A DNA stretch of 64,000 nucleotides from an uncultured virus (IMG/VR IMGVR_UViG_2049941000_000011). Taxonomy: Duplodnaviria; Heunggongvirae; Uroviricota; Caudoviricetes. The notes beneath the pieces are model-generated. The model saw only the letters and a program-made list of their open reading frames with translations. It did no database searches and was not told the origin of the DNA. The DNA lies in the IMG/VR virus record IMGVR_UViG_2049941000_000011; one strand, given 5' to 3'. Position numbers and translations under genes: made by a program. Positions 38,230 to 52,652 of the stretch are shown here, one piece after another (position 1 is the stretch's first letter; every line of letters begins with the position of its first letter).

Positions 38230-41200
38230 TTATTTGTAAGACATATATGTCTTAAATAAATCTTTTNNNNNNNNNNNNNNNNNNNNNNNNNNNNNNNNNN
38301 NNNNNNNNNNNNNNNNNNNNNNNNNNNNNNNNNNNNNNNNNNNNNNNNNNNNNNNNNNNNNNNNNNNNNNNNNNNNNNNNNNNNNNNNNNNNNNNNNNNN
38401 NNNNNNNNNNNNNNNNNNNNNNNNNNNNNNNTCAACTTGCATATTAATTGTGTTAATATTAATAGATTCATCAGTAGATGTACCAACACCTGTAAATTTA
38501 GGATTACTTAAGTGAAGCTCTAACATTCTCATAAGATTTGGAGCTACATCACCCAAAGCCCAGAGATTCTTAGTAATATCAGCAGGAATAATACCTGTTT
38601 GTGAAGGCAATGAAGTTAATGTACCTTGTGGCGTAATAATCGCCTCAGTTCCTAATTCATTGACCATAACAGGACCACCAGCGAAAGATAAATCACCAGT
38701 ATATTTTCCATCTGCTAGATCGGTATAATCAGGTGTGTATACTTCGTCAAATTGAGGTCTCCAGTTTTTACCTTTATCACCGTTTGAGAGATTATTGTTT
38801 TTCCCCGAATCCCCATTAACTTTGTAAACTTTTCCATCCTTTACATAAACAGCATAATCACCATAATAGTCGCTTCCTATACCTAAAATAACATATTCTG
38901 ATACGCCTTTTTGATATAATCTATCAACATAATCTTGTAATGTGTCATCGCTGTCTACAGCTTGATAAACTGTACTATCAGAAGGATAAAAACCTTTTCC
39001 ATCTCCGTTTTTAAGCCACATATATGAATCGTGAGGATCTTTAAGATCTTCCAATATTTCTGCAGCTATCGAACTATCGGTCATTAGCTCCATGTTACTG
39101 GTTCCTTTATAATATTCGCTAGTATCATGTGGATTTTCTAAATCAAACACCATTTTAGGAGTATATCTTTGTTCAGATTCTTTACCATTAGAAGCTGCCC
39201 AAGCACCAACTTTCTCGCCATTACCCATAGCAACCGATGATCCCCACGTTTGAGTGTCTTCTTCAGTCATGCCAACGTTTTTAGCATTTTGCATCGCAGT
39301 ATGAAAATTAGAAAGAGCTGTGTTAAAACTTCTAGAACCTGGTTTTGAATTGGTCAAAACATTCCAGGCCTTTCGTGCCTCTTCAACAGCTTTGGTTTTT
39401 TCAGCAGCATCTGTGTCTGAGCTGTTTTGAATTAAATTAGACAATTTTTCTTCAACGCCATTGATACCCGCTACAATACTCTGATAAAGATCTTCCGCGG
39501 TCTCATAAAAGTTTCCGTCTTTTTCCGCTTCTTTTATATAATCATCATATAATTTTGACAATAACTCAAAATTTTGTTTCTCATAGATAGAAGACAAATC
39601 AGCTTTTTGACTTTCAAGTTCTGCGATTTGTGTTTCAAGTTCTGAAACAGTTTTGCGATTCTCTAAATCACTAATATTCTTCTGAGCATCAATAATAGCA
39701 TTTTGGTCAGATTCATAAACCCAACCGACGCCAGCTCTATAAACACGCTTCTTCTCTTGCATCGCATTTTCTAATTTGAGTTTTGCTTCAATAAGACTGT
39801 TTTCGTATTCACGTTGCTTATTAATATCTTGTAATGCTTCTTTTTGTTCATTCAAATTATTAAGTTCTTGGTCTAAAACTTGAGTTCTAAAATTAATAAT
39901 ATGATCATAACGACCTTTTAAAACACTAGAAGTGATAGATAAATCGAACTGATCCACTATTTCTTTTAAAGAATCAAGAACCTTTTGACCTCTATCAGAA
40001 AGTTTACCATTAGATAAATATTCTTTCTTTAACCAATCTGTGACTGCAGAAATAGAAGTAATATTTTCTTTGTCTAATAATTTAGTGATATCAGAATCAC
40101 CAATTCTTTCATAGAATTTTTCCTTAATAGTTGAATAAGTAGTTTCATCACTCGACACGGCTGTATATTGAGCGTTGACATATTGGTTAGATAAATTTTT
40201 AAGTTTTGTTCCAATCTTTGAAAATAAAGTTGGAATATCACTCATATAAGCAATTAAATCTGGAAATTGATTGATAATTTCATTCATCCACGCAGATACG
40301 TTGCCCGCACCTGTTGTAATAGAATCTAGTAAACCCGTATATTTAGATATTTCGTTTGCTAGCTCTGTCGTAGATAAATAAGTATCTGCTAAAGTTAAAG
40401 AGCCATATTTAGATTCTACAGCCTCAAGTTGATCGACTGTTGTGCCTAAAGAAGCTGCAAAAGATTCTAAAATCCTTTGTACTTGTTTAGTATTACCTAA
40501 TTTTTCTCTTAATTTAAGAGCTTCTGATAAAGTATATGCCTGACCAGAAAGTACAGCACTTATTTCGTCATCTCCTAAATTCTTAACTTGACGCATTAAA
40601 TAATCATATCCAGCATCCGTTAATTTACCATTATCAAATAAAGTATAACCATCAAAACCATGGTCTTCTGCAGATTCACCAATTGCTTGTAAAATCTGTT
40701 CATTACCAAGATTTTTCAATTGAGCAATACTCATATCTTGAATATATTGGTCTTGATATTTAGCATCGATTAAACCTTGTCGTAACGAAATATCATTACG
40801 CTCGTCCATCATCTGGCTAATCATCGCATTTTGTTCTTTTAATGTAGCAAGTAATTCTTCTGCATTTTTAATATCCTCAGCGTGATTATTTTCAGTATCA
40901 GCTTGCCATTCTTCGATACGATCTTGAATAGCATTCATCTGTTCAGATGTAGTTTTTCTATTCCATTCAGATTCTAATGCATGACGTTTTTCATCTTCTT
41001 CGGCTTGAGCGATTCCCATTTTAATGGCCGCAAAAATACCAAAGCCAACCCCAAGTAACAAACCAATTGGGCCAAGAAGGCTAAGCCCACCAGCGACAGC
41101 TAAAGAACCAGCTCCTAACGCGATACCTGTGCCAACCATTGATCCAACAGCAATACCTGTTCCGACTGCTGCGCCGCCAAGAGCTACACCAACATCTGCT

Positions 41201-44148
41201 GCGACACCTCCGGCGCTAGGTTTTCCATTATAGTGGTCAAATCTACTATATTGTGTACCCATCGTTTCAGATAAATCTTGGAATTGATCAGCATATTTAT
41301 TTGGAATTTGTGCTTTTTTAGCTTCTAGTTGCGCTAACTGTAATTTTTTATACGCTTCCAACGATTTCTCATCGTTTTTCTTAATAGCTTCAATGGTGTC
41401 ATATAATGATCCAGGACCACCGAGATATAAGTCTAAAGTTTTTCTGAGGTCTTTATTATCGTTTTCATATAAGGTCGATAGTAATTCAGTAATGCCTTCA
41501 TTAAATTCAGCACTACCAAATTGAGCATGCCCAATATTTTCAATATTGTTATTAATAGAATCTAATTTTTGCAACATTTTAGCCGCATCTTTAGCCGCTT
41601 TGTTAGCAATATCTCTAGCCTTATCAATACTACCAGCAATTTTTTCACCAATACCGATAATATTATCAAAGAACGATCCAATGCCAAACGGAATAAGGGC
41701 TAAAATAGCCGAGACTGCTCCAGCAGTTTCTTGTGCAGCCTCCGAAGACTCAACTAAACTATCCTCGTATTTGTGAGTAGCGCCAGATGTTTTATAAGCA
41801 ATTAATGCGCTAGAAAGGCTACTTATAATCATAGATACGCCAGCGAGAATAGCAGAGAAGGAGCCCCCTCCTGCAGCAGCAGCAGTCGCACCAGCAGCAT
41901 TTGCACCGCCGGCACCAGCGCCACCTCCTGCAGCAGCTATATTTGCAGCGTTTGCTGCTCCTTGTACATTTGTACCTAATAAATGAGTATTATGTATAAC
42001 ATCCGATATGCCTTGTCCAGCTTTTTGAACTAACGATTTACCCATTAATGCTTTAACATCTTCAACAGCATGAAGAATCATAGGTAACCATTTAACAAAC
42101 CATGGTAAGAGATGTTCTACAACCCAAGTAAGGCCTTTGGTAACATCTGTTAATGTCTTATTAATTTGTGCATTATTTACTAGTTGTTTAATTGCATCAT
42201 CTAAACTTGCTTTCGCTGCTTCATATGATTCTTGATATGATTTATATTTCTTATCGGCTGTACCTGCAGAGTTTTCAGATACTTCAAGATTTCTCTTATA
42301 CTTATCATAGTTTTCCATGAGAGTAAGGAAGGCTTCTTGTTGTCTAGTGCCCGCAAAACTTGTAGAAATAGCTCTTTTTGTAACATTATCTAAATCACTC
42401 CAACGTTCTGCTAATTCATCAATAATGACATCGAAATCTTTAAAGTGTAAATTAGCGTCTCTAATAGAAATACCTAATTTCTTCAAAACTTTTTCAACAT
42501 CATTTAGGTCTTGAGAATTATCCATTGTTTCAGCGTTAACATTTAATTTATTATATGCCCCAGCTTTAACGTTACCGTAACGAGACATAATCATCTTTAA
42601 TGAACTACCAACTGCAGAGCCACTGTTTTGAGTAACTTCAGCGATAGTCGCGACATATGCCGCTGCTTGGTCAAGATTAACACCATTAACATTTGCTAAG
42701 TTTGCAAATTGAGAAAGACCCTCAGCGATTTCACCCGCTGTGACAGCTGCTTGCATATCAATAGCTGTTAATTTATCAACAACCTTAATACTCTCATTTG
42801 AAGCCATCTTAAAGCCTTTTAATGCGCTTGTTAAATCTTGTGTAGCTTTAGTCATATCAATCATACCAAGTTTACTTAATTTAGTAGTTGAAGTAACTAA
42901 TTCCATAACATCGGCTGTATCATAACCTTGTCTATAGAAATCTCTAGCTGCACCTAGAACGTCTTGTGCAGTGGTGCCTAATTCTTTAGATAAATTAATG
43001 AATTGTCCTGTCAATTGTTGAGCAGCAGCTCTAGTTGTTCCTGTAACAATACGGATTTCAGTCATAGATTTATCTAATTCCTTAGCAATCTTAATAGCTT
43101 CGGTGAGACCTTTCCTCAAAATTTGGAAAAATTTCATAATAGCTCCGCCATTTACCATTCTTTCGAACCACCAAACGATACGGCCGTCTAATGAATAATA
43201 TGCGGAAGACCTCTTGGAACCTGCACCAGCTGCGCCTGCAGCGCCTTTAAGAGCTTGAGAATTCTTATAATTATATTGATTCTTTTGTAAAGCTAAATGA
43301 ATTTGATAACGACGCTCCAAATCAGCAGTATCGATACCTTCTGTTTTCTTTAATTTTTCAATCTTCGCTTCGCGACCAGCGATGTTGCCTTTTAATAAAT
43401 CGTTTTGGTCTTTTAAACTTTTAGCGTATTCAAGAGATTCAGCCGTATTTTCTTTTTGTAATTTTTCAATTTGATGTTCGTTATCTAAAATCTTTAATTG
43501 ATCTTGTAAATTTTCGTCAAATTGTTTCCTAACACGACTCATCACGCGTTCGAGTTTTTCTTCTGGAGCAAGTTCGGCTGCTTCTGCAACTTTGTCCTTA
43601 CCCTTCTTACCAGAACCGCCACCTCCAAAAGGTCCAGTGCCCTTTGGATAATTATTTACGTTATTTTCAACATGCTTAATGTTAATATTTTCTGCAGTAA
43701 TCTTCATGTGTTCTACATGTTGAATACCTTTGTGAATAATTTCTTGTTTGTCTGCTGCGCTCATTCTTGATGGTGTTGCAGCTTCTGAGGATGATAGTGC
43801 TGCTTCGACTTTATCTTCTACGACTTCTTTAACGGTTTCTTGAACAGCTTGAATTTCTTTTGTAGAAGGTTTAGTTGCCTTACCGCTACCTCTAGGTCTT
43901 CCTCTTTTTTTTGCAGAAGACACTGGTTCAGAAGCTGAAGAAGACGCCACTGGGGCATCTATAACAGGAGCGGCAGTAGTATCTCCTAGCAGAGATTCGG
44001 CTGAAATTTGCTCATTGCGCTTTTCAAACTCCTCATTTAATCCCACGACGGTGATCTCATTTGGGTCACCTACAGGAACATTAACATTTTGAGAAGATGG
44101 TATATCATCAACCCACGGTCCTTTTAATTGTTTAATTTCTCCGTCATA
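38230..44148 (-). CDS. Tape measure protein (core and C-terminal part); both ends at gaps
   Basis: ELDKSMTEIRIVTG...VVDKLTAID...GSSLKMIMSR...FAGTRQQ TP901-type core, hydrophobic Gly/Ala segment, long coiled coils, VNELGTEAII. Confidence 0.9.
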   Translation of the reverse strand, partial: YDGEIKQLKGPWVDDIPSSQNVNVPVGDPNEITVVGLNEEFEKRNEQISAESLLGDTTAAPVIDAPVASSSASEPVSSAKKRGRPRGSGKATKPSTKEIQAVQETVKEVVEDKVEAALSSSEAATPSRMSAADKQEIIHKGIQHVEHMKITAENINIKHVENNVNNYPKGTGPFGGGGSGKKGKDKVAEAAELAPEEKLERVMSRVRKQFDENLQDQLKILDNEHQIEKLQKENTAESLEYAKSLKDQNDLLKGNIAGREAKIEKLKKTEGIDTADLERRYQIHLALQKNQYNYKNSQALKGAAGAAGAGSKRSSAYYSLDGRIVWWFERMVNGGAIMKFFQILRKGLTEAIKIAKELDKSMTEIRIVTGTTRAAAQQLTGQFINLSKELGTTAQDVLGAARDFYRQGYDTADVMELVTSTTKLSKLGMIDMTKATQDLTSALKGFKMASNESIKVVDKLTAIDMQAAVTAGEIAEGLSQFANLANVNGVNLDQAAAYVATIAEVTQNSGSAVGSSLKMIMSRYGNVKAGAYNKLNVNAETMDNSQDLNDVEKVLKKLGISIRDANLHFKDFDVIIDELAERWSDLDNVTKRAISTSFAGTRQQEAFLTLMENYDKYKRNLEVSENSAGTADKKYKSYQESYEAAKASLDDAIKQLVNNAQINKTLTDVTKGLTWVVEHLLPWFVKWLPMILHAVEDVKALMGKSLVQKAGQGISDVIHNTHLLGTNVQGAANAANIAAAGGGAGAGGANAAGATAAAAGGGSFSAILAGVSMIISSLSSALIAYKTSGATHKYEDSLVESSEAAQETAGAVSAILALIPFGIGSFFDNIIGIGEKIAGSIDKARDIANKAAKDAAKMLQKLDSINNNIENIGHAQFGSAEFNEGITELLSTLYENDNKDLRKTLDLYLGGPGSLYDTIEAIKKNDEKSLEAYKKLQLAQLEAKKAQIPNKYADQFQDLSETMGTQYSRFDHYNGKPSAGGVAADVGVALGGAAVGTGIAVGSMVGTGIALGAGSLAVAGGLSLLGPIGLLLGVGFGIFAAIKMGIAQAEEDEKRHALESEWNRKTTSEQMNAIQDRIEEWQADTENNHAEDIKNAEELLATLKEQNAMISQMMDERNDISLRQGLIDAKYQDQYIQDMSIAQLKNLGNEQILQAIGESAEDHGFDGYTLFDNGKLTDAGYDYLMRQVKNLGDDEISAVLSGQAYTLSEALKLREKLGNTKQVQRILESFAASLGTTVDQLEAVESKYGSLTLADTYLSTTELANEISKYTGLLDSITTGAGNVSAWMNEIINQFPDLIAYMSDIPTLFSKIGTKLKNLSNQYVNAQYTAVSSDETTYSTIKEKFYERIGDSDITKLLDKENITSISAVTDWLKKEYLSNGKLSDRGQKVLDSLKEIVDQFDLSITSSVLKGRYDHIINFRTQVLDQELNNLNEQKEALQDINKQREYENSLIEAKLKLENAMQEKKRVYRAGVGWVYESDQNAIIDAQKNISDLENRKTVSELETQIAELESQKADLSSIYEKQNFELLSKLYDDYIKEAEKDGNFYETAEDLYQSIVAGINGVEEKLSNLIQNSSDTDAAEKTKAVEEARKAWNVLTNSKPGSRSFNTALSNFHTAMQNAKNVGMTEEDTQTWGSSVAMGNGEKVGAWAASNGKESEQRYTPKMVFDLENPHDTSEYYKGTSNMELMTDSSIAAEILEDLKDPHDSYMWLKNGDGKGFYPSDSTVYQAVDSDDTLQDYVDRLYQKGVSEYVILGIGSDYYGDYAVYVKDGKVYKVNGDSGKNNNLSNGDKGKNWRPQFDEVYTPDYTDLADGKYTGDLSFAGGPVMVNELGTEAIITPQGTLTSLPSQTGIIPADITKNLWALGDVAPNLMRMLELHLSNPKFTGVGTSTDESININTINMQVXXXXXXXXXXXXXXXXXXXXXXXXXXXXXXXXXXXXXXXXXXXXXXXXXXXXXXXXKDLFKTYMSYK

Positions 44149-44299
44149 NNNNNNNNNNNNNNNNNNNNNNNNNNNNNNNNNNNNNNNNNNNNNNNNNNNN
44201 NNNNNNNNNNNNNNNNNNNNNNNNNNNNNNNNNNNNNNNNNNNNNNNNNNNNNNNNNNNNNNNNNNNNNNNNNNNNNNNNNNNNNNNNNNNNNNNNNNN

Positions 44300-47200
44300 G
44301 AATTTTTCACGAATTTTTTCTTCAGATTCATGTAAAAATACAGCGAGAGTATATCCCTTAGCGTCACCCTTAGCTGTTGGGCATCTAACATATTCATGTC
44401 TACCAATATTATTTCCACATTCATAAATATAAATTCTACCAGCAAGTTCTCCATCGTCAGCGAGAAATCTAACAGCTGCATAATTCTTATTATCGCTATC
44501 TCCATAAACATAGTATAAACCATCTTTAATTTGAGTTTCACGCCACTTTGCCAAACGTTTTGCCGCCGAGCGATCTTTCTTAGTATCATAACGTGATACA
44601 CGATCATCTATATCAGACAAACCAGCCACAAAATTATCTTGTGCCTCTTTGTTTGCATGCATAGCTGTAACGGTAGAACCTTGTAAAACCAAATTTTCTA
44701 AGGCTCCATCAGACCCCGTCATAGTATCGAGTTTAGCATGTTCGCCGATTTGTTTTTCTATAACATCGATTAACGAATCTTTTCCGCCACTATTAACTTC
44801 AGCATATTGTGCACTGTCTTCACATTGCTTGTAATATGCAGCTAAACTGTGTAAAACATTACGAACACTACCGTCTTCTCCGGCTATTGTTTCCAACCAA
44901 ACAGAATCTGTCGCCTGGCCTCCGAGGTACCATAAAATATAACCCCAGTCATATCCAGCGTCTAAAAGAGCATCAATTTCTTCTCTTAGTCTCATAGTAG
45001 CTGCCATTTGAGTAGATTGTTCAGAAGTTAAATTTGCTTTGACAAATTCAGCTGGGTTAGCTGTTAATTCATCATTATGATCTTTTTGATAATTTTTAAA
45101 TAATTTACCAATAGCTGAAGCATAAATATCTTTAGCATAGTATAAATAAGATAGTTTATGAGCAACTTTTGTAGAATTTAATATTTTATCATCTGGATTA
45201 AANNNNNNNNNNTCTAATAATTCATCTTCTAACAAACTATCTCTACGAGGATCAAATTTAGCATCTTCATCAGCAAGAATTTTAGCTGCGTCTGCAGGCA
45301 TCATTTCCATAATACCCTTATCATTTATACCATAACTCTTGAATACACCATTAACCAAGTGCAACATACTTTGATCTGATGATGCTTTAATAGCTTTATC
45401 TATATCATTAATAGAAGAAAAACCAGCCATTCTAGATTTGATGAATTTACTTTTAGTTTGTTCAGATAATTTTGAAATATCTATATCACTCAAATCATGC
45501 CATGGGTGGTCACCTTTCATCCAATCTTCTTTAGAGCCACCTTGTTTAATAAAATCATAAAAATCACCCCAATATTGTTTTTCTCGAGGTAAAAATGTTT
45601 TATTTAACCAACTGTCTGGTTCAATTAAATTATTATTAATACCATTAATGGCTGATAATGTCATTTGATATTGCTCAGCATTTAATCTGTTCCAGGCTTG
45701 CGGGATTTGCAGATTTTCTTCTAGAATACCGACCATGTGATCATATAGTTTTTGTCTCTTAGCTGGCGATTGTCCTGCAATCATTGACATCCAACCAGAA
45801 AAAGATCTCGCTCCAATATCAATTCCATAGTCTCCTTGAGAAATAGTTCGATCCTTCATTGGATCTGCGTAAGCAGTATATTTATTTTTTAATACATCAA
45901 ACATTTCTTGGATAGGTTTATCATCATCGGATACTTTTCCATCTTTTCCTATAAATGATCTCGTACGAATTTGTCTTTGGAAATACCCCCTGTCATAACC
46001 AGGAACGCTCATGATTAAATCATGTAAAGCTTCAGCACCTCCACCATTTTGAGCAAAATGACGAGCCCATTCGGTTAAACTTTTACCATTAATAGTGCGC
46101 ACTGGTACATTTTTTCCATCTTCAGTTACCCAATTACGAGTACCTAAAGTTGTACCTACTCCACCACGGCCTAATATGCCAACAGCTTTTTTATATAATT
46201 TTTCTTTTTCTTCAGGGGTTTTTGCATTTTGCACTTGAAGAGAAATATCGATACATTCTAAAATCTTTTTTAGACCTAGATCATTAATATCAACTAAACC
46301 AGCAGATTGATCATTATTTCTTGGTAAATGAATAATTTTACCCTTATTGTCTAATTTAATTCCGTTGATTCGAGCTAATAATCTTAACAAATTAATTTGT
46401 AAACCATAATCAGCTCCAATGGATCCAGAACTTTTTAAGTCTGTAATCATAGCACCAAAAATTTGGTCTAATGTTCCAGCAATATTAACTTCGCGTCCAT
46501 TAATATTAATACGAGCTCCTAAAGCCTGCTCTGTAGCAGTTGCATTTTTATTACCAAGGCCCATTGAATCTTTTAGTCGTAAATAATCATTAAGATTTTT
46601 TTCTAATGATGCAATAATTTTTTGTTGAGCTTTATCAGTTCTATCATATATATGACCGTTTTTTCCATAGCTGTATAAAAAACCAGCTGCATCAGCTTGA
46701 TCTTCTGCTCTGGCGCTTTGAGCTAATTTTTTTACAAAGGATTCTACATCTTTATTTTTTACAGTCATTCCCGTGTGAGGTTTACCAAAAACATTAGATT
46801 TTTCGAGTTCTTCTATGGCTCTATGTAATAAAGTACCATAAGCCGTAGCATCAGTATCACCTTGATTTTCTTTTTTATAATATTCTGTAAAATTTTTAGT
46901 AAGTTGTGTAACAGAATAAATCGGATCCTTACCATATTTTTTCTTATCAGAAGCACCTTTCAAAACATATTCATGTTTTCTACGTTGAATACCATTAAGA
47001 ATTTCAATTGATGTATCTAAAGCAACATTTAAAGCTTTGGCTTGAACAATACCATTATTTAAATTCTTACGATATTCTTTAATTTTAGGATTACTTTCTG
47101 TTTTTTTTACCTCTTTAGTTAAAGCCAAGAGTTTATTCATTTTATCTTTAATTTTATTATATTCTGCTTCTTTGTCTAAGCTTTCAAGATNNNNNNNNNN

Positions 47201-47361
47201 NNNNNNNNNNNNNNNNNNNNNNNNNNNNNNNNNNNNNNNNNNNNNNNNNNNNNNNNNNATTGTGAAGGGTTGCTCTTAAACCACTCTGTTATTTCATCAA
47301 GTTGTTTTTGTAATTCAGCAATTTCTTTCATTGATTGCTTATCTTCCATGTTGTTTGCCAT
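44300..47361 (-). CDS. Large protein with a PD-(D/E)XK-like domain; probable N-terminal part of the tape measure protein
   Basis: Starts MANNMED after AGGAGG; open frame runs into gaps on both sides; YSVTQL, YGTLLH, IAGTLD, TDLKSS, YGLQINL motifs. Confidence 0.65.
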
Positions 47362-47380
47362 ATTCAACCCTCCTAAACAT

Positions 47381-47408
47381 AAAAAAGAACTACCCATTCG
47401 GGCAGTTC
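47381..47408 (-). terminator. Intrinsic terminator closing the large ncRNA unit
   Basis: GAACTGCCC-GAAT-GGGTAGTTC followed by T6. Confidence 0.85.
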
Positions 47409-47425
47409 ATAATTTTTAACATAAC

Positions 47426-48042
47426 TGTTCTTTGATAAGTAATTTAACATTGAGACTTTTCTTCATCTTACAACACTTTTATCATGTTTTATTCACACAC
47501 ATTCACGGAGGTCTGAGCGAAAAGGAGCTACCTTTAGGCTTCCTCAATGGGGTAAAACCCGAACAATGGCTAGAATCAAATAGATTGTATTTGTATTCTG
47601 CAACTTTCACCGAACTTCAGAATTTTTTAAGGTTCATCAGTTACTATTACTCATAACTCATGCACAACGTATCATATTTGAGCTGTGTCATACGGCTACT
47701 TGCACACTTACTAACTCTTATACATAACTTACGTTACTTCAAGACACTTCCTTACTTTGAGAACCCAGCTATCAAGTTTCTCAGGCTTGTAACTAATGGT
47801 GAGATGTATTTCTACAGAGCTTCTTGTGGGACGAGCTGTAAGCTTGTTTAAACACCGATAATATGTTGCACTGACATCTCCGCTCGTAAATCGTAGCTTA
47901 CGAGAGAACTCTGATGTTACCTACCAGAGTTTTTTACGTACGACCAGTATCCCAGCCTTATTGCTATTTCATCAAGATGCCATCCCTGCAAGACGTAATC
48001 CTCTTCACAGGGTTCAACTAATAAATTACTTGTCAAAGAACA
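47426..48042 (-). ncRNA. Large structured ncRNA (~575 nt) in a 21-bp terminal stalk; ROOL-like candidate
   Basis: No credible ORF; inverted repeat 47426-47446 / 48022-48042 (20 of 21 match); own promoter and terminator; near tRNAs; size fits ROOL. Family assignment unverified. Confidence 0.7.
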
Positions 48043-48098
48043 ATTTGGTTTTAACAACTTTTCCTTGTTGAATTCTTTTATAGTGAATTACGCTATTT

Positions 48099-48127
48099 AG
48101 TATATATGGTATTTATATTCTTGTCAA
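48099..48127 (-). promoter_or_regulatory. sigmaA-type promoter of the large ncRNA
   Basis: TTGACA-17-TATACT. Confidence 0.8.
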
Positions 48128-48182
48128 ACATTTTTTTTATTTTGTCTCAGATATAAATATTTGACTCAACCTTTTACACTCT

Positions 48183-48494
48183 CTAGAATGGTAAATTGAA
48201 GAATGTTGCAAACAATTCAGAAAGAGTTGGACCCTTCGATGTTGTAACACTTGTTTGTGTGTGATGATAGCTCTTATAATCTTGAATAAAGCTATTAAGA
48301 GCATCTTGATATTTCTTTCTAGCTTCTAAATAAGCAGCTTCTAGAGTTTCAACCTCTTTTGCTCTTTCAGCTCTTTTCTTTTTGAAATCTTCAATTTGAG
48401 CTTGTTTCTCATCATACTTTTTTTCATCTGCTTCTAAATCTTTTTTAGATTCATAGATTTTACCAGTTTTTTCACTTTTAAATAATTCAATCAT
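48183..48494 (-). CDS. Small coiled-coil protein (103 aa)
   Basis: AGGAGG SD before MIELFKSEK; the longer tracked ORF overlaps tRNA-Gln and is over-extended. Confidence 0.75.
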   Translation of the reverse strand: MIELFKSEKTGKIYESKKDLEADEKKYDEKQAQIEDFKKKRAERAKEVETLEAAYLEARKKYQDALNSFIQDYKSYHHTQTSVTTSKGPTLSELFATFFNLPF

Positions 48495-48574
48495 TTTTAA
48501 GTCCTCCTGTTGACTTTGCGAATAAAATCCTATTTTTATTCCGCATAATAACTGTGTATCTGAGACCATACACT

Positions 48575-48649
48575 TGGCAGGGAAAGAAGGGTTCGAACCT
48601 TCGCATCCAAGATTCAAAGTCTCGTGCCTTACCACTTGGCTACTTCCCT
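48575..48649 (-). tRNA. tRNA-Gln(TTG)
   Basis: AGGGAAG/TTTCCCT-G-CCA, anticodon arm CGAGA-CTTTGAA-TCTTG, T-loop TTCGAAC. Confidence 0.92.
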
Positions 48650-48670
48650 ATTTTATCCAATTAACTTCAA

Positions 48671-48696
48671 AGCAGTTTTGCGACTTGCTCGGGTCG
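48671..48696 (-). repeat. H-type pseudoknot motif (related copies at 50111-50136 and, degenerate, 48764-48787)
   Basis: CGAC-CCGAGCAA-GTCG-CAAAAC-TGCT. Confidence 0.6.
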
Positions 48697-49052
48697 GGGA
48701 GTAGAACTATCGTCCATCGTCCTCGTCCTCATCTCAATTAAGCTCCGCATGGACTATGTGAGCAGCAGTTTAACGACATGTCGGTCAACCGATACAATTA
48801 TTTTTAAATCTATATTACTCTATCGGCTAAGTATGAGATTTATATAAACTTTCTTCCTGTTGGTAGAAAGATCACATATTTATGAAAGAGGGTATCTCCT
48901 TTTCTCCAATAAGCAGCCGCAGCTATTTATTGTCCACAAACGCCGTGCACGACGATAGAGATTAGGTGTGGCATCGGCGCCCCTCGCGCCCATTATCCCT
49001 CGTTATTTCGCAAGACACCCCCTGGCCAGAGGATATCAAGTTACTCTCTATT

Positions 49053-49129
49053 TGGTTGGAATGACAGGATTCGGACCTGCGACCTTCTGCTCCCAAAGCA
49101 GACGCGATACCAAGCTACGCTACATTCCA
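49053..49129 (-). tRNA. tRNA-Pro(TGG)
   Basis: TGGAATG/CATTCCA-A-CCA, anticodon arm TCTGC-TTTGGGA-GCAGA; atypical T-loop TCCGAAT. Confidence 0.88.
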
Positions 49130-49193
49130 ATATTTGTGTGGGCTCAACCCCACTTGCAGACCCTTTTGCCTGGAGTTCCCCAGCTTTTCTAAT

Positions 49194-49356
49194 AGTCTAT
49201 ATCTGATGCTCGGGTCATTGGAACGCTGTGTCCTCAAAGATAGGCCCGATGTTTTTTTATTCTTACACATCATTAAACTTTAGTAGTCCACTTACTTAAT
49301 CCTTATCTGGCCAAAAAACGAACCCTAGAATCCTAGGAACCAGCATCAGACTAAAC
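49194..49356 (-). ncRNA. Rod-like hairpin RNA with central bubble (6S-like candidate)
   Basis: Closing helix TCTGATGCT/AGCATCAGA, inner GGCC.GAT/ATC.GGCC helix, unpaired centre. Confidence 0.4.
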
Positions 49357-49372
49357 AACATTCAGTACCAGG

Positions 49373-50150
49373 TGGTGGAACTTATTTGACTCATCCTTTT
49401 ATCAGGGACATTACTGCGGGATCGAGGGTTTACTCTCCTCTTAACATGGAGTCTTCATGGGTTTATAGTTTTCCTTCTGATGGTCTTCTACAATGTCTCT
49501 ATTGCTCTTGCGTGCGGTCTCTACCAGTAGCCCAACGAAGTCTCTTGACAGGAGCTCTCTCTATCCCAATGCAAGTCCAAGGATAGCCGTCAACGCTCGG
49601 CCTAACTCTCTACTTAGTGTAGTTAGACTTTGCCTCTCACGTAAGAACGCGGGTTACCCCGCAGCCGGCAAACACCCCGACTCTCCCTTTTACGTTATGA
49701 GGCCTAGAGACTTACATGCTCTAACATGGGTTTATATGGTTTTCCTTCCACATTAATTTTGGCCCTTTAAGCGTCGGGTCAGAAACGCTCGCATTCGCGA
49801 CACAGGTGTGGACGTATCCTATCCTGCTTTCCTATTGTAAAGAGGAACTTCACAAAAGTTCCCCAGCGAGCCATCGGCTCTAATAATGTAATACAATTTG
49901 TTTTCGTTCGAAGCAGACAAATCATAACTGCTATATTATCTATGAATCCGCAAACGCATAGATACTATCTGTTTAATAAAGCTTTCAGGGGTTATAGCTT
50001 CATATGACTTTAATCTTTAACAGATTCATGTTTTACGAATTTACCCTGCAGCGGCTACTTCAACCCGAAAAGTCCGGTGCATTTAAAGACTCACCAGCGT
50101 CTTTGTCTATGGCAGTTTAACGTCATGCCAGGGACGTGTGTCTAATTTCA
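49373..50150 (-). ncRNA. Structured non-coding transcript region of unknown family
   Basis: Higher GC than flanks, no credible minus-strand ORF, many hairpins and pseudoknots, duplicated motif; downstream of a consensus promoter. Confidence 0.6.
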
Positions 50151-50160
50151 AAGTAATTAT

Positions 50161-50189
50161 ATTATAGACGACAACACTTATAATGTCAA
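50161..50189 (-). promoter_or_regulatory. Consensus sigmaA promoter of the tRNA/ncRNA island
   Basis: TTGACA-17-TATAAT. Confidence 0.88.
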
Positions 50190-50210
50190 TTATTTTTATA
50201 TCTACAATAT

Positions 50211-52652
50211 CTATTTAATAATTGGTGCATAATCATAAGACTGAACAGAAATAGTGGTCCAAGAAAGTGGGGTTGAGGAATTCTCAGTAGTGTAGCCTGC
50301 TAAAGTTAATCCTATGCCACCCGTACCTTGCCACAATTCAATTAACTCAAGAGGGTTAGATTGTTGAAGCAGCGCGGATAATTGTTGAGTAGGAGCACTG
50401 CCAGAGCTAATGTTCATATTGTAAAACTTAATGCTTTTTAGTAAATCAGCATAATTTCTATCAACAGTAATATTAGTAAGAAGGGTATATAAAGAATCAC
50501 TAGATTCTAATAATTGAGTACATGCTTCATCTTTATATAAATGATTTGCTGTTTCATTTTGTGCTTTATTAGGATTGTAAACAGTTGTATTTTTAAAATA
50601 TAAAATCTCTGGCTCAGGTTCTGGCTCTTCTGCCTCTGCCCATTCCACTCTCTTCACAGGAGCCGAAAGAATAGACTGTAAGCCATCAAAGTTTACAGAT
50701 TCACTATCTGTCGTTAGATAAGGATATCCATTTTCGAGATGATTATCTATAATACTTTGATCCCATGTTCCGCCGTCTCGAGTGTCAATTGCTCTTTCAA
50801 AGACATCTCCATCATACCAACCAAACCACCAATCACCATTATCTGCTTTTCTTATATATAAATCCCAACCAGAGCCTTCTCCTCCATATGCTAAGAAACA
50901 GTAATCCCACTCATCTAAATCTGGGAATGCATTGTCTAAGATATTAATAACTTCTGCACGAGTTAAATTGGTATTGATATATAACTTATTATAACTAGTA
51001 TCATGTTGTAGCGGATTACCAACGCCATCATCATATGACACTTCCATTACATACTTTCCTTCGTCAAGATTTTTAGGAGAAGGTGTAGATTCATCGGCCC
51101 AAATTGTTCGTCCACTTTCATCGCAAGTAAGAATTTGTCCAGGTGAACCTGAACCTGGTCCCACTGTGACAATCTCACGGAAATTTTTTCCGTCTGCTGA
51201 TGGAGGTAATATTAATGCACCATCGACTTCTTTAGGAACATACATTAATTGACTTAAAATATTTAATTGTGATTGATTTAAAACATTCTGACCAGTACCT
51301 TCGTTTGGTCTACCATTAATAGGTATACGATTGCCAAATTGTTCTAGATATTCTTCATTCCACTCAAATCGATTGAAAATATCCCCATCAAATAAAACGT
51401 CGCCAGTATTTGGATCTGTTAAATATACTGAGATCTTTGTACTTTCCCAATCCTCTGAGTCCATATAAAAAGTAATTTCAAGTCCTTTGGTGCTATAAAC
51501 AGTATATGTATCATATTGACCCGTTGAATTTAGAATACTCCAAACCTCTTCATATGGTTTAGTAGCATCAAATACTATCTCTTGAGGCCAACGACTGCCA
51601 TCATCAAGAGTAAGGCCATCTAATGGAGCCGGAATAGCTTCTATTTCATTAGAAACTTCTCTATAGAATACATTATAATTAATTTCCGATAAAGGTTGCG
51701 TTGGATCAACACTAATAATAGCTTGCGGTACAACAAATTTAGGATCAATCTTGATAATAGATTCACCCCCTCCAAAAATTGTTGCGTGCTCCATGCACAC
51801 TACACCTTCTATCGCACCATAGTGTTTAGTTTCGGTCATGAATAAACCACGAGACATCCCTGGAATATCATCTTGTGTAATCCCCACTAAAAGCTCACGC
51901 GTACTACCTGTGTGATCTTCTACTTCAATAACATATTCGTTTTCTTCAGTATATATCATTGCGCGAGTAATAGTACCTGTGGCTGGAGCCGCTCCTGGTT
52001 GTAATACTACAGAGTAACGTTTACCAATAAATGCTGATGCTTCACAGTAGTCACCAACTTTTTTAACATGTTCTTCTGTGCCAACTCTTATTTCAGCATC
52101 GACCCAATTACCATCCCAAGAATAGGAATTAAAATTACCTCTTGTACCACGTGGTGGACTGTATTCTAATCTAGCGGTATATTGTAATATATTTACTTCA
52201 TTAATCGCGCCTTCTTTAAGATAGAAAAAATATAAACCAGCCTCAGGAAATATATATCCATTCCATATTGTTCCAGGTGTTAAAATACATATAACCATCG
52301 TACTGCCATAGTATGGAACATAATAATTTACTCCGTCAGTATCTCCGTCACCTTGCCAAGGATATGCCTTGTCATCATTATCATAAAGAGACGCATTACC
52401 AAAATAATCATCTGCATCAATAATTTCTTGAGGTGTTGTTAAAGGAGAATCTCCAACTCTTACCCAGCCGCTTACATAACTATAGACAGGTTCTTCTAGT
52501 GAATCATCATAACTAATAACACCTTCTTCTACAATACCCATGCCGCCAGCTTTAGCAGAGTTAATAATAGTATCTACTTCAGGTGGTATGTCTCCTCCAC
52601 CTCCGCCGGATTTACTCAATGCGAGTAAACGTGCAATAACATCAACTCCCAT
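50211..52652 (-). CDS. Large acidic beta-rich protein, probably virion-associated
   Basis: Short N-terminal helix plus SGGGGG linker, GSPGQILT..GRTIWAD fibre-type motif, two related internal domains. Confidence 0.6.
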   Translation of the reverse strand: MGVDVIARLLALSKSGGGGGDIPPEVDTIINSAKAGGMGIVEEGVISYDDSLEEPVYSYVSGWVRVGDSPLTTPQEIIDADDYFGNASLYDNDDKAYPWQGDGDTDGVNYYVPYYGSTMVICILTPGTIWNGYIFPEAGLYFFYLKEGAINEVNILQYTARLEYSPPRGTRGNFNSYSWDGNWVDAEIRVGTEEHVKKVGDYCEASAFIGKRYSVVLQPGAAPATGTITRAMIYTEENEYVIEVEDHTGSTRELLVGITQDDIPGMSRGLFMTETKHYGAIEGVVCMEHATIFGGGESIIKIDPKFVVPQAIISVDPTQPLSEINYNVFYREVSNEIEAIPAPLDGLTLDDGSRWPQEIVFDATKPYEEVWSILNSTGQYDTYTVYSTKGLEITFYMDSEDWESTKISVYLTDPNTGDVLFDGDIFNRFEWNEEYLEQFGNRIPINGRPNEGTGQNVLNQSQLNILSQLMYVPKEVDGALILPPSADGKNFREIVTVGPGSGSPGQILTCDESGRTIWADESTPSPKNLDEGKYVMEVSYDDGVGNPLQHDTSYNKLYINTNLTRAEVINILDNAFPDLDEWDYCFLAYGGEGSGWDLYIRKADNGDWWFGWYDGDVFERAIDTRDGGTWDQSIIDNHLENGYPYLTTDSESVNFDGLQSILSAPVKRVEWAEAEEPEPEPEILYFKNTTVYNPNKAQNETANHLYKDEACTQLLESSDSLYTLLTNITVDRNYADLLKSIKFYNMNISSGSAPTQQLSALLQQSNPLELIELWQGTGGIGLTLAGYTTENSSTPLSWTTISVQSYDYAPIIK

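Follow-up and report, generated by a model that had tools for sequence, protein, structure and literature searches.

A non-coding island with three copies of a compact motif

The window, by which we mean the whole 64,000-nt stretch of DNA analyzed here, comes from an uncultured virus of the Caudoviricetes, a phage of the rumen (IMG/VR record IMGVR_UViG_2049941000_000011). Its minus strand carries a non-coding island that ends downstream in a ROOL RNA with a promoter-like site of its own (48127-48099). Following the direction of the minus strand, the island contains these features:

50161..50189, minus strand: sigma-70-type promoter-like site, TTGACA-17-TATAAT, 12/12 in a consensus scan
49315..50153, minus strand: putative non-coding RNA of ~840 nt, family unassigned, which would start with copy 1
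50110..50136, minus strand: motif copy 1, CGTC-CCTGGCAT-GACG-TTAAAC-TGCC (50136-50111), plus an extra pair in its second stem
50085..50104, minus strand: 6-bp hairpin AAAGAC-GCUGGUGA-GUCUUU, present in the minimum-free-energy and centroid folds
49338-49323, minus strand: terminator-like hairpin at the 3' end of the ~840-nt RNA
49053..49129, minus strand: tRNA-Pro (UGG), lying between the ~840-nt RNA and copies 3 and 2 (ARAGORN and Rfam)
48742..48787, minus strand: motif copy 3, (T)GAC-CGACAT-GTC(G)-TTAAAC-TGCT (48787-48764), with a second hairpin
48670..48696, minus strand: motif copy 2, CGAC-CCGAGCAA-GTCG-CAAAAC-TGCT (48696-48671), plus an extra pair in its second stem
48575..48649, minus strand: tRNA-Gln (UUG) (ARAGORN; RF00005, 64.9 bits)
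47435..48036, minus strand: ROOL RNA (RF03087, 192.7 bits; gathering score, 99.1)

The predicted transcription start near 50154 leaves a leader of ~17 nt (17-18) ahead of the first stem of copy 1, and the first 18 nt from this start are unpaired in the nested fold of the copy 1 region. No ORF of 100 aa or more was found in the stretch of the ~840-nt RNA; the sole minus-strand ORF there encodes 52 aa (49115..49273) and partly overlaps the 3' end of the RNA. The ~840-nt RNA has a fold z-score of -2.04 (20 shuffles) and no Rfam match at E <=5. Exact contigs from RNA libraries (4 runs from 4 studies) were found within 49197-49762, covering parts of this RNA, and in the ROOL region at 47461-48018. 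These data are contigs without information on RNA ends, and 48670-48790 and 50085-50136 lie outside their coverage. Searches of Rfam 15 returned no match at the motif sites at the gathering threshold, and none at E <=5 in a search of 46500-51000. The only match within 50080-50150 at E <=10 was to GP20-b (RF03003) at copy 1, with 9.6 bits (gathering score, 36.2); it was taken as chance, and GP20-b had no match at the scaffold-gene instance of the motif (L009). A BLAST comparison of the 2.85-kb island with named phages returned tRNA matches only, and the neighboring 813-aa protein had no relatives in named phages, PHROGs, Pfam or viral contigs.

All three motif copies have the sequences and minus-strand positions given in an initial annotation of this DNA, which described them as a repeated H-type pseudoknot. 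In copy 1, the first stem (S1) pairs CGUC (50136-50133) with GACG (50124-50121) around the loop CCUGGCAU, and the second stem (S2) pairs UGGCA of that loop (50130-50126) with UGCCA (50114-50110) past the linker L3, UUAAAC (50120-50115). By its predicted pairing, copy 1 is a Watson-Crick, 8-base-loop pseudoknot resembling coremin, an Xrn1-resistant element of eukaryotic RNA viruses that is discussed below. Copy 2 is likewise predicted to be a Watson-Crick pseudoknot with an 8-base loop, in which S1 is CGAC/GUCG, the loop CCGAGCAA, L3 CAAAAC and S2 GAGCA/UGCUU. Between these two copies both stems carry compensatory changes (U-A to A-U in S1 and G-C to A-U in S2), as the initial annotation had pointed out. 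S2 comprises 5 bp in both, with one G.U in copy 2. This is one pair more than had been recognized, so the elements end at 50110 and 48670, respectively. The placement of the two copies was also read correctly at the outset: the promoter-like site puts S1 of copy 1 17-18 nt past the predicted start, where ~18 nt had been claimed, and copy 2 ends 20 nt before tRNA-Gln (48649-48575), which directly follows it.

Copy 3, on the other hand, had been called degenerate, and this description has to be revised. Its hairpin 1 pairs UGAC (48787-48784) with GUCG (48777-48774) around the loop CGACAU, which conforms to YGNNAD, and a 10-nt spacer, UUAAACUGCU (48773-48764), leads to hairpin 2, GCUC-14 nt-GAGC (48763-48742). 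Judged by its sequence, copy 3 is therefore not merely degenerate but has the two-hairpin, 6-base-loop layout published for coremin. Folding predicts hairpin 2 for copy 3 and none for copy 2, where the tRNA begins 20 nt on. Past copy 1, the 6-bp hairpin at 50085..50104 is separated from hairpin 1 by 16 nt and starts 5 nt beyond S2, and it may be the counterpart of coremin hairpin 2, though it is off the canonical 8-10 nt spacing. The nested-fold z-scores of the copies are -0.71, +0.21 and +0.25, values that are uninformative for pseudoknots. Upstream, copies 1 and 3 have the word AAAAATAATTG in common.

A widespread family of predicted pseudoknots

Within the window, the 26-nt IUPAC consensus at up to 3 mismatches matched twice, and none of 100 dinucleotide shuffles contained a match. 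The 13-nt core GWCGYWAAACTGC at up to 1 mismatch matched three times against 0.16 expected, a count reached in 0 of 100 shuffles. A descriptor of structure only (a 4-bp stem, a 4-9 nt loop, NNAAAC and an S2 of at least 4 bp) was not enriched in this AT-rich window, giving 5 matches against a mean of 2.1, with 18 of 200 block shuffles reaching 5. The significance of the motif in the window therefore has to be drawn from sequence and structure combined, and from the comparative data.

The initial annotation had suggested scanning phage genomes with a descriptor; viral contigs and bacterial genomes were scanned with sequence patterns. The pattern CCNNGCAWGWCGYWAAACTGC was found at no fewer than 117 loci in viral contigs (at least 117, in 48 distinct flank contexts). 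It also matched bacterial genomes, and among the matches listed there (at least 124), 83 are fully paired where chance would give an estimated ~2-3. Four proteobacterial matches lack S1 pairing and were set aside as chance-like. The 6-base-loop form seen in copy 3 is abundant in viral contigs as well, with lower bounds of 120 and 112 loci and with 182 unique sequences, and 35 of the 80 contigs listed for it are 15 kb or longer. Against named phages, a 32-nt version of the motif had four weak matches, to Moorella phage MTATph1, Synechococcus phage S-EIV1, Nostoc phage NMeng1 and a fecal phage. Bacterial carriers of a fully paired motif include Levilactobacillus hammesii DSM 16381, Lentilactobacillus senioris, Lachnospiraceae bacterium AD3010 and Moorella mulderi DSM 14980, in each case in a prophage region.

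Pairing is maintained across the family while the paired bases change. The middle pair of S1, whose 5' arm lies outside the search pattern, is U-A in 43, A-U in 41, G-U in 5 and unpaired in 3 of 92 unique sequences, and the pair closing the loop is C-G in 85 of them. In an alignment of 88 sequences (A1), 84.7% of cells pair compared with 76.5% in shuffles and 21.6-48.4% in slid controls; the covariation score is 0.259 against 0.128 for shuffled alignments, none of which (of 500) scores as high. S2 varies in the same manner: pair 10-28 is AU in 49, GC in 17, GU in 4, UA in 4 and other in 14, and pair 9-29 is GC in 36, GU in 14, AU in 11, UA in 2, CG and UG in 1 each and other in 23. In a scan with L1 left free (n=112), the fourth S2 pair is A-U in 72, G-C in 29, G-U in 5 and other in 6, and the loop starts with CU in 100, CC in 11 and UU in 1. 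The outer S1 pair of A1 is CG in 40 and UG in 36 of the 88 sequences. Long open frames flanking the motif favor its strand, both upstream (26 vs 13) and downstream (29 vs 8). The frequent U.G in S1 and the predominance of same-strand flanking frames argue that the motif acts as RNA on the motif strand. The linker was assessed in a scan that left it free: NNAAAC occurs in 26 of 41 unique matches and TTAAAC in 15, U19 being fixed in every search pattern. Covariation in both stems of independent family members thus supports the compact H-type pseudoknot first proposed for the window. From these sequence comparisons, the knot is a widespread, uncatalogued family of predicted phage pseudoknots of ~27 nt in which both stems covary.

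Comparison with coremin and other exoribonuclease-resistant RNAs

To our knowledge, exoribonuclease-resistant RNAs (xrRNAs) are known only from eukaryotic RNA viruses, where they block Xrn1, and we know of no Xrn1 in bacteria. The closest known relative of the phage knot is coremin (xrRNA_C), an element of many eukaryotic RNA viruses, BNYVV and the cucumoviruses among them (PMC6546385; PMC10520033). BNYVV coremin consists of hairpin 1, C1G2U3C4/G9A10C11G12 with the loop CGAA, and the spacer U13U14A15A16A17C18U19A20C21 (PMC6546385; PMC10321173). The stem of hairpin 1 has 3-4 bp and is closed by a pyrimidine-purine pair (C-G, with U-A tolerated), and spacer positions A16-A20 are essential whereas 13 and 14 are tolerant (PMC6546385). 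Loops of the form YGAD (4 nt) and YGNNAD (6 nt) are described, and loops of 7-8 nt starting with CG are functional, whereas the loops CCGAA and CCGAAA do not stall Xrn1 (PMC10520033). Xrn1 resistance requires hairpin 2, of which only the structure matters, after a spacer of 8-10 nt (PMC10520033; PMC6546385). Published Xrn1-resistant forms include 8-base loops (PMC10520033) and Watson-Crick pairing between loop and spacer, and a change of A20 to a C that pairs with the loop is tolerated (PMC10321173).

The agreement is close. The copy 1 stem CGUC/GACG with its C-G closing pair is identical to that of BNYVV hairpin 1, and copies 1 and 3 both reproduce the BNYVV spacer exactly from U13 to U19 (UUAAACU). 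The C13 and A14 of copy 2 are natural variants of plant viruses (PMC6546385), and the phage linker as a whole varies at positions 1 (U/C) and 2 (U/A) as it does in those viruses. AAAC-U, essential in coremin, is conserved in the phages, with U19 fixed by the search patterns. All three copies (CGUC/GACG, CGAC/GUCG and UGAC/GUCG) follow the closing-pair rule, their last loop base, A or U, corresponds to the published D, and copy 3 has the complete layout of YGNNAD loop, 10-nt spacer and second hairpin. Placement is similar too, being intergenic or untranslated and sometimes tandem. The unpaired leader of ~17 nt ahead of copy 1 reproduces the layout of the constructs used in RppH-plus-Xrn1 assays, which carried a 10-nt leader (PMC10321173).

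There are differences as well. Copies 1 and 2 depart from the loop rule with a C, in place of G, at the second position of the loop, and each of the three copies carries at position 20 a G, predicted to pair with the loop, where coremin has A20. The phage family has a regular Watson-Crick S2 of 5-6 bp backed by covariation, and a second hairpin is not a general feature of its members: as judged by fold energies of the 40 nt downstream of 290 distinct instances, hairpin 2 is not enriched family-wide after the phage knot. Finally, the setting of the phage element is DNA phages and bacterial hosts, which are not known to have Xrn1.

A Watson-Crick variant of coremin, xrRNA_WCC, emerged from a screen and has been suggested for two viral species including Sanxia picorna-like virus 5, and compensatory mutations in it restored Xrn1 resistance (PMC10321173). 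As this source describes it, xrRNA_WCC has in common with the phage form hairpin 1, the A-rich linker and an antiparallel Watson-Crick stem joining the hairpin 1 loop to the 3' spacer; compensatory mutants support that stem there, as natural covariation does in the phage family. The published variant has a 4-nt loop with G first and a 3-bp S2 made by spacer bases 18-20 (PMC10321173), whereas the phage form has an 8-nt loop with C first and an S2 of 5-6 bp made by bases 19-23 or 19-24, and is very widespread. The phage form thus departs from the published loop and S2 geometry of xrRNA_WCC.

More distant are the flavivirus xrRNAs and xrRNA_LT, in which a knotted fold mechanically blocks a 5'-to-3' enzyme in a direction-dependent way, the action proposed here for the phage knot. 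They are larger and unrelated in sequence, with solved ring-like folds, and the searches of 46500-51000 gave no similarity to them in sequence or in Rfam. Some xrRNAs of the flavivirus, Tombusviridae and Solemoviridae types are described as intergenic and as defining the 5' ends of subgenomic RNAs (PMC10520033). We found no literature report of coremin in phages.

Genomic context and alternative functions

The position of the knot relative to upstream genes was analyzed in 78 distinct instances preceded on their own strand by an open frame of 55 codons or more. The spacing is sharply preferred and hints at a ribosome-linked role: S1 begins within 14 nt past the stop codon in 53 of them (0-4 nt in 4, 5-9 nt in 34 and 10-14 nt in 15, that is, 49 at 5-14 nt), and none overlaps the stop. 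With this spacing the knot would sit at the mRNA entrance of a ribosome at the upstream stop, where it might pause or block ribosomes and thereby uncouple neighboring genes, prevent sliding and re-initiation, or modulate termination. We judge such a role unlikely. It would agree with the 20 nt past the knot, which are G-poor (15% G against 22-24%), and with the weak structure downstream (mean fold energy over 40 nt of -5.14 kcal/mol against -5.93 and -7.23 for controls), as expected of a ribosome landing zone. It would agree as well with the stalling of scanning ribosomes by coremin (PMC10520033) and the efficient -1 frameshifting that coremin drives (PMC10321173). Frameshift and readthrough pseudoknots resemble the phage knot in their compact H-type topology and A-rich linker, and the 5-9 nt that separate frameshift knots from the A-site codon equal the stop spacing of many phage instances. 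The window copies differ from them in having no slippery site, open downstream frame, upstream ORF or Rfam match. Since no ORF precedes any window copy (copy 1 follows a promoter-like site, and the other two are flanked by tRNAs on either side), a role independent of translation is needed. Other instances lie just before tRNAs, which directly follow the motif in a few loci (L324 and L396 by ARAGORN, L044 by Rfam), and the stop spacing may reflect no more than the tight packing of phage genes with the knot clear of the terminating ribosome.

Alternatively, the knot could be recognized by a protein. RNase III sites in T7 cut polycistronic transcripts, and the knot might similarly direct an endonuclease to defined places in polycistronic or tRNA-containing transcripts, or else bind an RNA-binding protein or a factor of RNA polymerase whose recognition depends on both sequence and shape. 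The ~15 bases that are invariant across very different phages and the intergenic position of the element speak for such a signal, as do the copies clustered within a few hundred bases in the window and at one viral-contig locus (L077) and the U-runs found within 16 nt past the knot in 48 of 257 instances, compared with 24 and 1 in control segments. Here too we find the proposal improbable. No gene was seen to recur beside the knot: 18 of 27 downstream ORFs have no PHROG match, and the 9 that do match SSB, head scaffold (2), regulators (2), primase and three families without assigned function. This diversity favors a general role. Hosts of the motif range from CPR bacteria to Firmicutes and Cyanobacteria, and it is present in contigs of eukaryote-type RNA viruses as well, which makes a single dedicated protein partner implausible unless that partner is universal. 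Coremin, moreover, needs only the nuclease to function in vitro (PMC10520033; PMC6546385).

A third explanation, which we consider still more doubtful, is that the knot is a structural module, insulating or scaffolding the folding of structured RNAs such as large non-coding RNAs, tRNAs or ribozymes beside or around it. The window knots adjoin a tRNA and a large RNA that is predicted to be non-coding. Among 10 small RNA-virus-like contigs searched, 5 have a match to a GIR1-like ribozyme (22-48 bits, all below the gathering score of 100) whose 5' edge is made by the knot, and the S2 hairpin of the knot aligns there to a hairpin of the GIR1-like model. Most instances, however, precede ordinary protein genes with an unstructured leader, and a scaffold would not require the invariant AAAC-U linker held in common with an exonuclease-resistant element. 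ROOL RNA was found in 0 of 5 motif-bearing genomes, in a search whose controls were likewise negative, which makes this result uninformative.

A small-molecule riboswitch appears very improbable. The smallest riboswitch class, typified by preQ1-I, is an H-type knot of ~27-34 nt with an A-rich 3' linker, near the phage knot in size and topology, and the loop and linker bases of the phage family are conserved. No Rfam riboswitch family, including preQ1-I (RF00522), matched the 71-nt stretch searched at E <=10, nor did Pistol. No consistent expression platform follows the knot: a U-run is present in only 48 of the 257 instances, and words resembling a Shine-Dalgarno sequence occur at scattered positions. 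What lies downstream has no function in common and includes tRNAs, and L2, a single base, would probably leave little room for a pocket. Chance, or a repeat at the DNA level such as a duplicated promoter-leader segment without RNA structure, has in its favor the upstream word held by copies 1 and 3 and the structure-only result, but can be dismissed as extremely improbable in view of the shuffles (0 of 100 with a match), the hundreds of independent family members that show compensatory changes and G.U pairs on a single strand, and the fully paired genome matches among those listed.

A candidate roadblock to 5'-to-3' decay

The explanation we prefer, tentatively and at slightly below an even chance, is that copy 1 acts as a mechanical roadblock to 5'-to-3' decay that caps the ~840-nt RNA, and that the precursor of tRNA-Gln is shielded likewise. 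Of the three functions raised in the initial annotation, the nuclease-blocking cap is the one that fits coremin; the processing signal and the protein-binding module stand as the rivals weighed above. In this explanation the phage family as a whole would be the bacterial-virus counterpart of coremin and its Watson-Crick variant.

In the proposed fold, a 4-bp S1 is closed by C-G, and the 3' part of the loop would pair past the (Y)(W)AAAC linker to give an S2 of 5-6 bp. The A-rich linker probably lies in the groove of S1, and the resulting compact knot would be hard to unwind from its 5' side. After removal of the 5' triphosphate or a cut upstream, an enzyme dependent on the 5' end would move 5'-to-3' and presumably stall at the base of S1. 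This enzyme could be the exonuclease RNase J where the host has one, and otherwise RNase E scanning along the RNA. If transcription begins at the predicted promoter, copy 1, ~17 nt past the start, would become the stable 5' end of the ~840-nt RNA, and copies 3 and 2 would protect the pre-tRNA-Gln stretch once tRNA-Pro has been cut out upstream.

Several observations count against this reading: the departure of copies 1 and 2 from the coremin loop rule, the G at position 20, the lack of hairpin 2 enrichment across the family, the stop-codon spacing elsewhere, the distribution of RNase J and the rarity of the promoter-knot arrangement. Of 10 genomes carrying a fully paired motif, only 5 had a detectable RNase J (TIGR00649 above cut-off), a count to be read with the caution that MAGs may be incomplete and phage contigs mis-binned. 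It was not found in one MAG each of an Akkermansia, a Sphingobacteriales, an Actinomycetota, a Planctomycetales and an Omnitrophota member. A first RNase J search, on the four proteobacterial matches that lack S1 pairing and on Weissella, was set aside. The arrangement of a promoter followed after ~18 nt by the knot is rare in the family, with 1 promoter-like site 0-20 nt upstream among 257 instances.

Elements that stabilize mRNA at the 5' end are known from bacteria and phages, such as the ompA 5' hairpin and the aprE leader, which are obstacles to RNase E scanning or RNase J. As proposed for copy 1, a stable structure near the 5' end guards the RNA downstream. These stabilizers are simple hairpins or bound ribosomes without conserved sequence, whereas the phage knot is a predicted pseudoknot of conserved sequence that occurs in many phyla, for the most part inside operons.

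Somewhat less likely than the roadblock itself is the broader proposition that these knots are the first xrRNAs outside eukaryotic RNA viruses, stopping RNase J or scanning RNase E in DNA phages of many phyla and defining RNA 5' ends there. If this is true, the knot would determine where phage messages, pre-tRNAs and ornate non-coding RNAs such as the ~840-nt RNA have their stable 5' ends, and the identity between the phage element and that of plant, fungal and insect RNA viruses would mean either strong convergence on a minimal mechanical solution or an ancient exchange. In the window, a new large RNA, predicted to be non-coding and lying next to ROOL, probably has its 5' end at copy 1, which makes the boundaries and stability of that RNA testable. 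If the function holds, the knot would also provide a direct handle on the blocking of 5'-to-3' decay in bacteria and a very small stabilizing module for synthetic biology. For the phages themselves, it would mean that they control RNA decay with a portable part of 27 nt.

A conserved RNA pseudoknot in a phage non-coding island

The knots of the window are a real, conserved RNA pseudoknot and represent a coremin variant that is new and borne by phages. The three copies reside in a non-coding island that spans 2.8 kb of a tailed phage whose tape-measure protein is encoded at 38230-44607, and the sequencing runs holding the whole stretch are labeled bovine gut metagenome.

Features of the island, in minus-strand order
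50189-50161, minus: sigma-70-type promoter-like site, 12/12 in a consensus scan
49315-50153, minus: ~840-nt non-coding stretch between this site and a terminator-like hairpin
50136-50110, minus: copy 1, CGUC-CCUGGCAU-GACG-UUAAAC-UGCCA
49338-49323, minus: terminator-like hairpin
49129-49053, minus: tRNA-Pro
48787-48764, minus: copy 3
48696-48670, minus: copy 2, CGAC-CCGAGCAA-GUCG-CAAAAC-UGCUU
48649-48575, minus: tRNA-Gln
48183-48494, minus: 103-aa ORF with a strong AGGAGG Shine-Dalgarno, between tRNA-Gln and ROOL
48127-48099, minus: ROOL promoter-like site TTGACA-17-TATACT, between the ORF and ROOL
48036-47435, minus: ROOL RNA, 192.7 bits
47408-47387, minus: ROOL terminator-like hairpin

The initial annotation had placed copies 1 and 2 correctly and had rightly described compensatory changes between them in both stems; the predicted second stem (S2, loop with post-linker sequence) spans 5 bp, one pair more than described. 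It had also put copy 1 close to a predicted transcription start, and the spacing from the start predicted for the 12/12 site is ~17 nt. The motif is in excess of shuffled sequence, a comparison that the annotation had named among those able to refute it: with at most 3 mismatches, the 26-nt consensus is found at two sites in the window and in none of 100 shuffles, while the 13-nt core has three occurrences where 0.16 would be expected, and 0/100 shuffles reach three. In the AT-rich window a structure-only descriptor gave 5 matches, no enrichment over shuffles (mean of 2.1, 18/200 as high), so the case rests on sequence and structure together and on comparative data.

The ~840-nt stretch contains no ORF of at least 100 aa, matches no Rfam family up to E = 5, gives a fold z-score of -2.04 (20 shuffles), and is matched exactly within 49197-49762 by RNA-library contigs from four studies. 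This stretch may represent a new large phage RNA, neighboring ROOL and two tRNAs. ROOL, which has no coremin-like knot ahead of it, is likewise matched exactly by contigs from four RNA libraries in four studies (47461-48018 in three, 47627-47933 in the fourth). All of these contigs lie outside the motif sites and cannot show RNA ends. The AGGAGG of the 103-aa ORF suggests that the host uses translation signals of a Firmicutes-like type.

Both stems covary across a widespread family

A pattern scan of viral contigs, similar to one of the checks proposed in the initial annotation, found the knot to be widespread and both stems to covary. The CCNNGCAWGWCGYWAAACTGC pattern matched at least 117 loci in 48 flank contexts, and among the matches listed 54 of 80 viral contigs were at least 15 kb long. 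Because the 5' arm of the hairpin-1 stem (S1) and the bases after UGC fall outside the pattern, they provide an unbiased test of pairing. The middle S1 pair in 92 unique sequences was U-A in 43, A-U in 41, G-U in 5, and unpaired in 3. In an alignment of 86 unique 36-mers plus two window copies (A1), 84.7% of cells pair versus 76.5% in shuffles, with a covariation score of 0.259 versus 0.128 (reached by 0/500 shuffles) and 21.6-48.4% pairing in slid controls. S2 pair 10-28 was AU 49, GC 17, GU 4, UA 4, other 14, and pair 9-29 was GC 36, GU 14, AU 11, UA 2, CG 1, UG 1, other 23. A sixth S2 pair (8-30) is unsupported for the CC form in A1 (paired in 17/88). The outer S1 pair is U.G in 36/88 sequences of A1 and the open frames flanking family instances run mostly on the motif's strand; both observations indicate that the structure forms in RNA read from this strand.

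When the linker was not constrained, NNAAAC was recovered in 26/41 unique matches; the other 15 look like chance. With the loop start left free, CU was commonest (100/112) and CC, the form of this window, a minority (11/112). The sixth S2 pair is usual in the CU form (U-A 64 and U.G 13 of 101 sequences with U as second loop base). At L077, a viral-contig motif locus, two further copies flank the motif, ~90 nt upstream of it and 200 nt downstream; their loop starts UU instead of CC/CU and their single L2 base is G, so the true family is broader than the patterns used.

A genome scan returned at least 124 distinct instances. Full S1 and S2 pairing was found in 83 of the 124 listed, where an estimated ~2-3 are expected by chance. 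These occupy 81 loci, which include, by the titles of those listed, Firmicutes, Desulfobacterota-type MAGs, CPR bacteria, Planctomycetes, Omnitrophota, Cyanobacteria, Actinomycetota, Chloroflexi, and Akkermansia. The alpha-, beta-, and gamma-proteobacterial matches among those listed with titles all lack S1 pairing and were set aside as chance.

Likeness to coremin

No Rfam family matched at the motif; GP20-b gave a 9.6-bit match that was not reproduced at another instance, and this identity was rejected. The closest known element is coremin, the Xrn1-resistant RNA of eukaryotic RNA viruses. According to PMC6546385 and PMC10520033, hairpin 1 of BNYVV coremin is C1G2U3C4/G9A10C11G12 with a C-G closing pair and a CGAA loop (consensus YGAD; YGNNAD where the loop has 6 nt; 7- and 8-nt loops starting CG also function). 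Its spacer is U13U14A15A16A17C18U19A20C21, in which A16-A20 are essential while changes at 13 and 14 are tolerated. A second hairpin, which may have any sequence, follows, and Xrn1 halts at the hairpin-1 base. The Watson-Crick variant has a 3-bp loop-spacer stem proved by compensatory mutants (PMC10321173).

Copy 1 shares with BNYVV all four stem pairs as well as U13-U19, and where the phage linker varies (U/C, U/A), plant viruses vary too. Differences of the phage form are G for A20, which pairs with the loop, a C at the second loop position in copies 1 and 2 (loops CCGAA and CCGAAA did not work in an Xrn1 assay, PMC10520033), and the lack of family-wide enrichment of a second hairpin. Copies 1 and 2 thus read as an 8-base-loop Watson-Crick relative of coremin. 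Copy 3, previously called degenerate, instead has the canonical layout, with a 6-base CGACAU loop fitting YGNNAD, a 10-nt spacer UUAAACUGCU, and a 4-bp second hairpin. This 6-base-loop form occurs at no fewer than 120 and 112 loci in viral-contig scans (182 unique sequences), many on contigs of phage size; among the matches listed, AAACU is followed by A in 154 and by G in 23.

Literature searches found no report of coremin in phages, although subscription journals and supplements may hold more. At the level of titles, searches for xrRNA in phage or bacteria gave genome-editing and methods papers, and those for exoribonuclease-resistant RNA with bacteriophage and RNase J gave only unrelated work. 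PMC10321173 mentions neither "phage" nor "bacteri".

Five contigs of only 2-4 kb, each listed as viral, carry a knot 7-8 nt past a long ORF's stop, where it marks the 5' boundary of a match to the lariat-capping ribozyme GIR1.

Knots with GIR1-like matches
L011:597-813
L042:592-787
L004:413-632
L066:589-804
L012:594-826

These matches are full-length but sub-threshold (22-48 bits; gathering score 100) and retain conserved core strings of the ribozyme. The downstream ORF of L011 has a viral coat S domain (PF00729, E 1.8e-10). No RNA virus with a GIR1-like ribozyme turned up in a literature search.

Proposed role

A ribosome-linked role for the knot is kept alive by its family-wide neighborhood. 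Among the 78 instances with an upstream same-strand ORF, S1 starts 5-9 nt past its stop codon in 34 and 10-14 nt past it in 15 (5-14 nt in 49/78, 0-14 nt in 53/78), never overlapping the stop. The 20 nt that follow the knot are poor in G (15% G) and show little structure. However, none of the three window copies has an ORF directly upstream, so a translation-independent role is required here. A riboswitch is argued against by the diversity of downstream genes across the family. A U-run follows within 16 nt of the knot in 48/257 instances. At locus L044, a 45.2-bit tRNA match (688-747) begins 9 nt past the knot without an ARAGORN call; its sequence looks interrupted, possibly by an intron.

The best-supported reading, and a plausible one by analogy with coremin, is that the knot would act as a mechanical block to 5'-end-dependent decay. 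Speaking less for it, RNase J scored above cut-off in only 5/10 genomes with a fully paired motif. The ~17-nt leader before copy 1 is unpaired in the predicted fold, an arrangement that mirrors the leader-plus-knot test constructs described in PMC10321173. Copy 1 would then provide a stable 5' end for the ~840-nt RNA, and copies 3 and 2, which follow tRNA-Pro in that order and precede tRNA-Gln, would shield the pre-tRNA-Gln segment once upstream processing is done.
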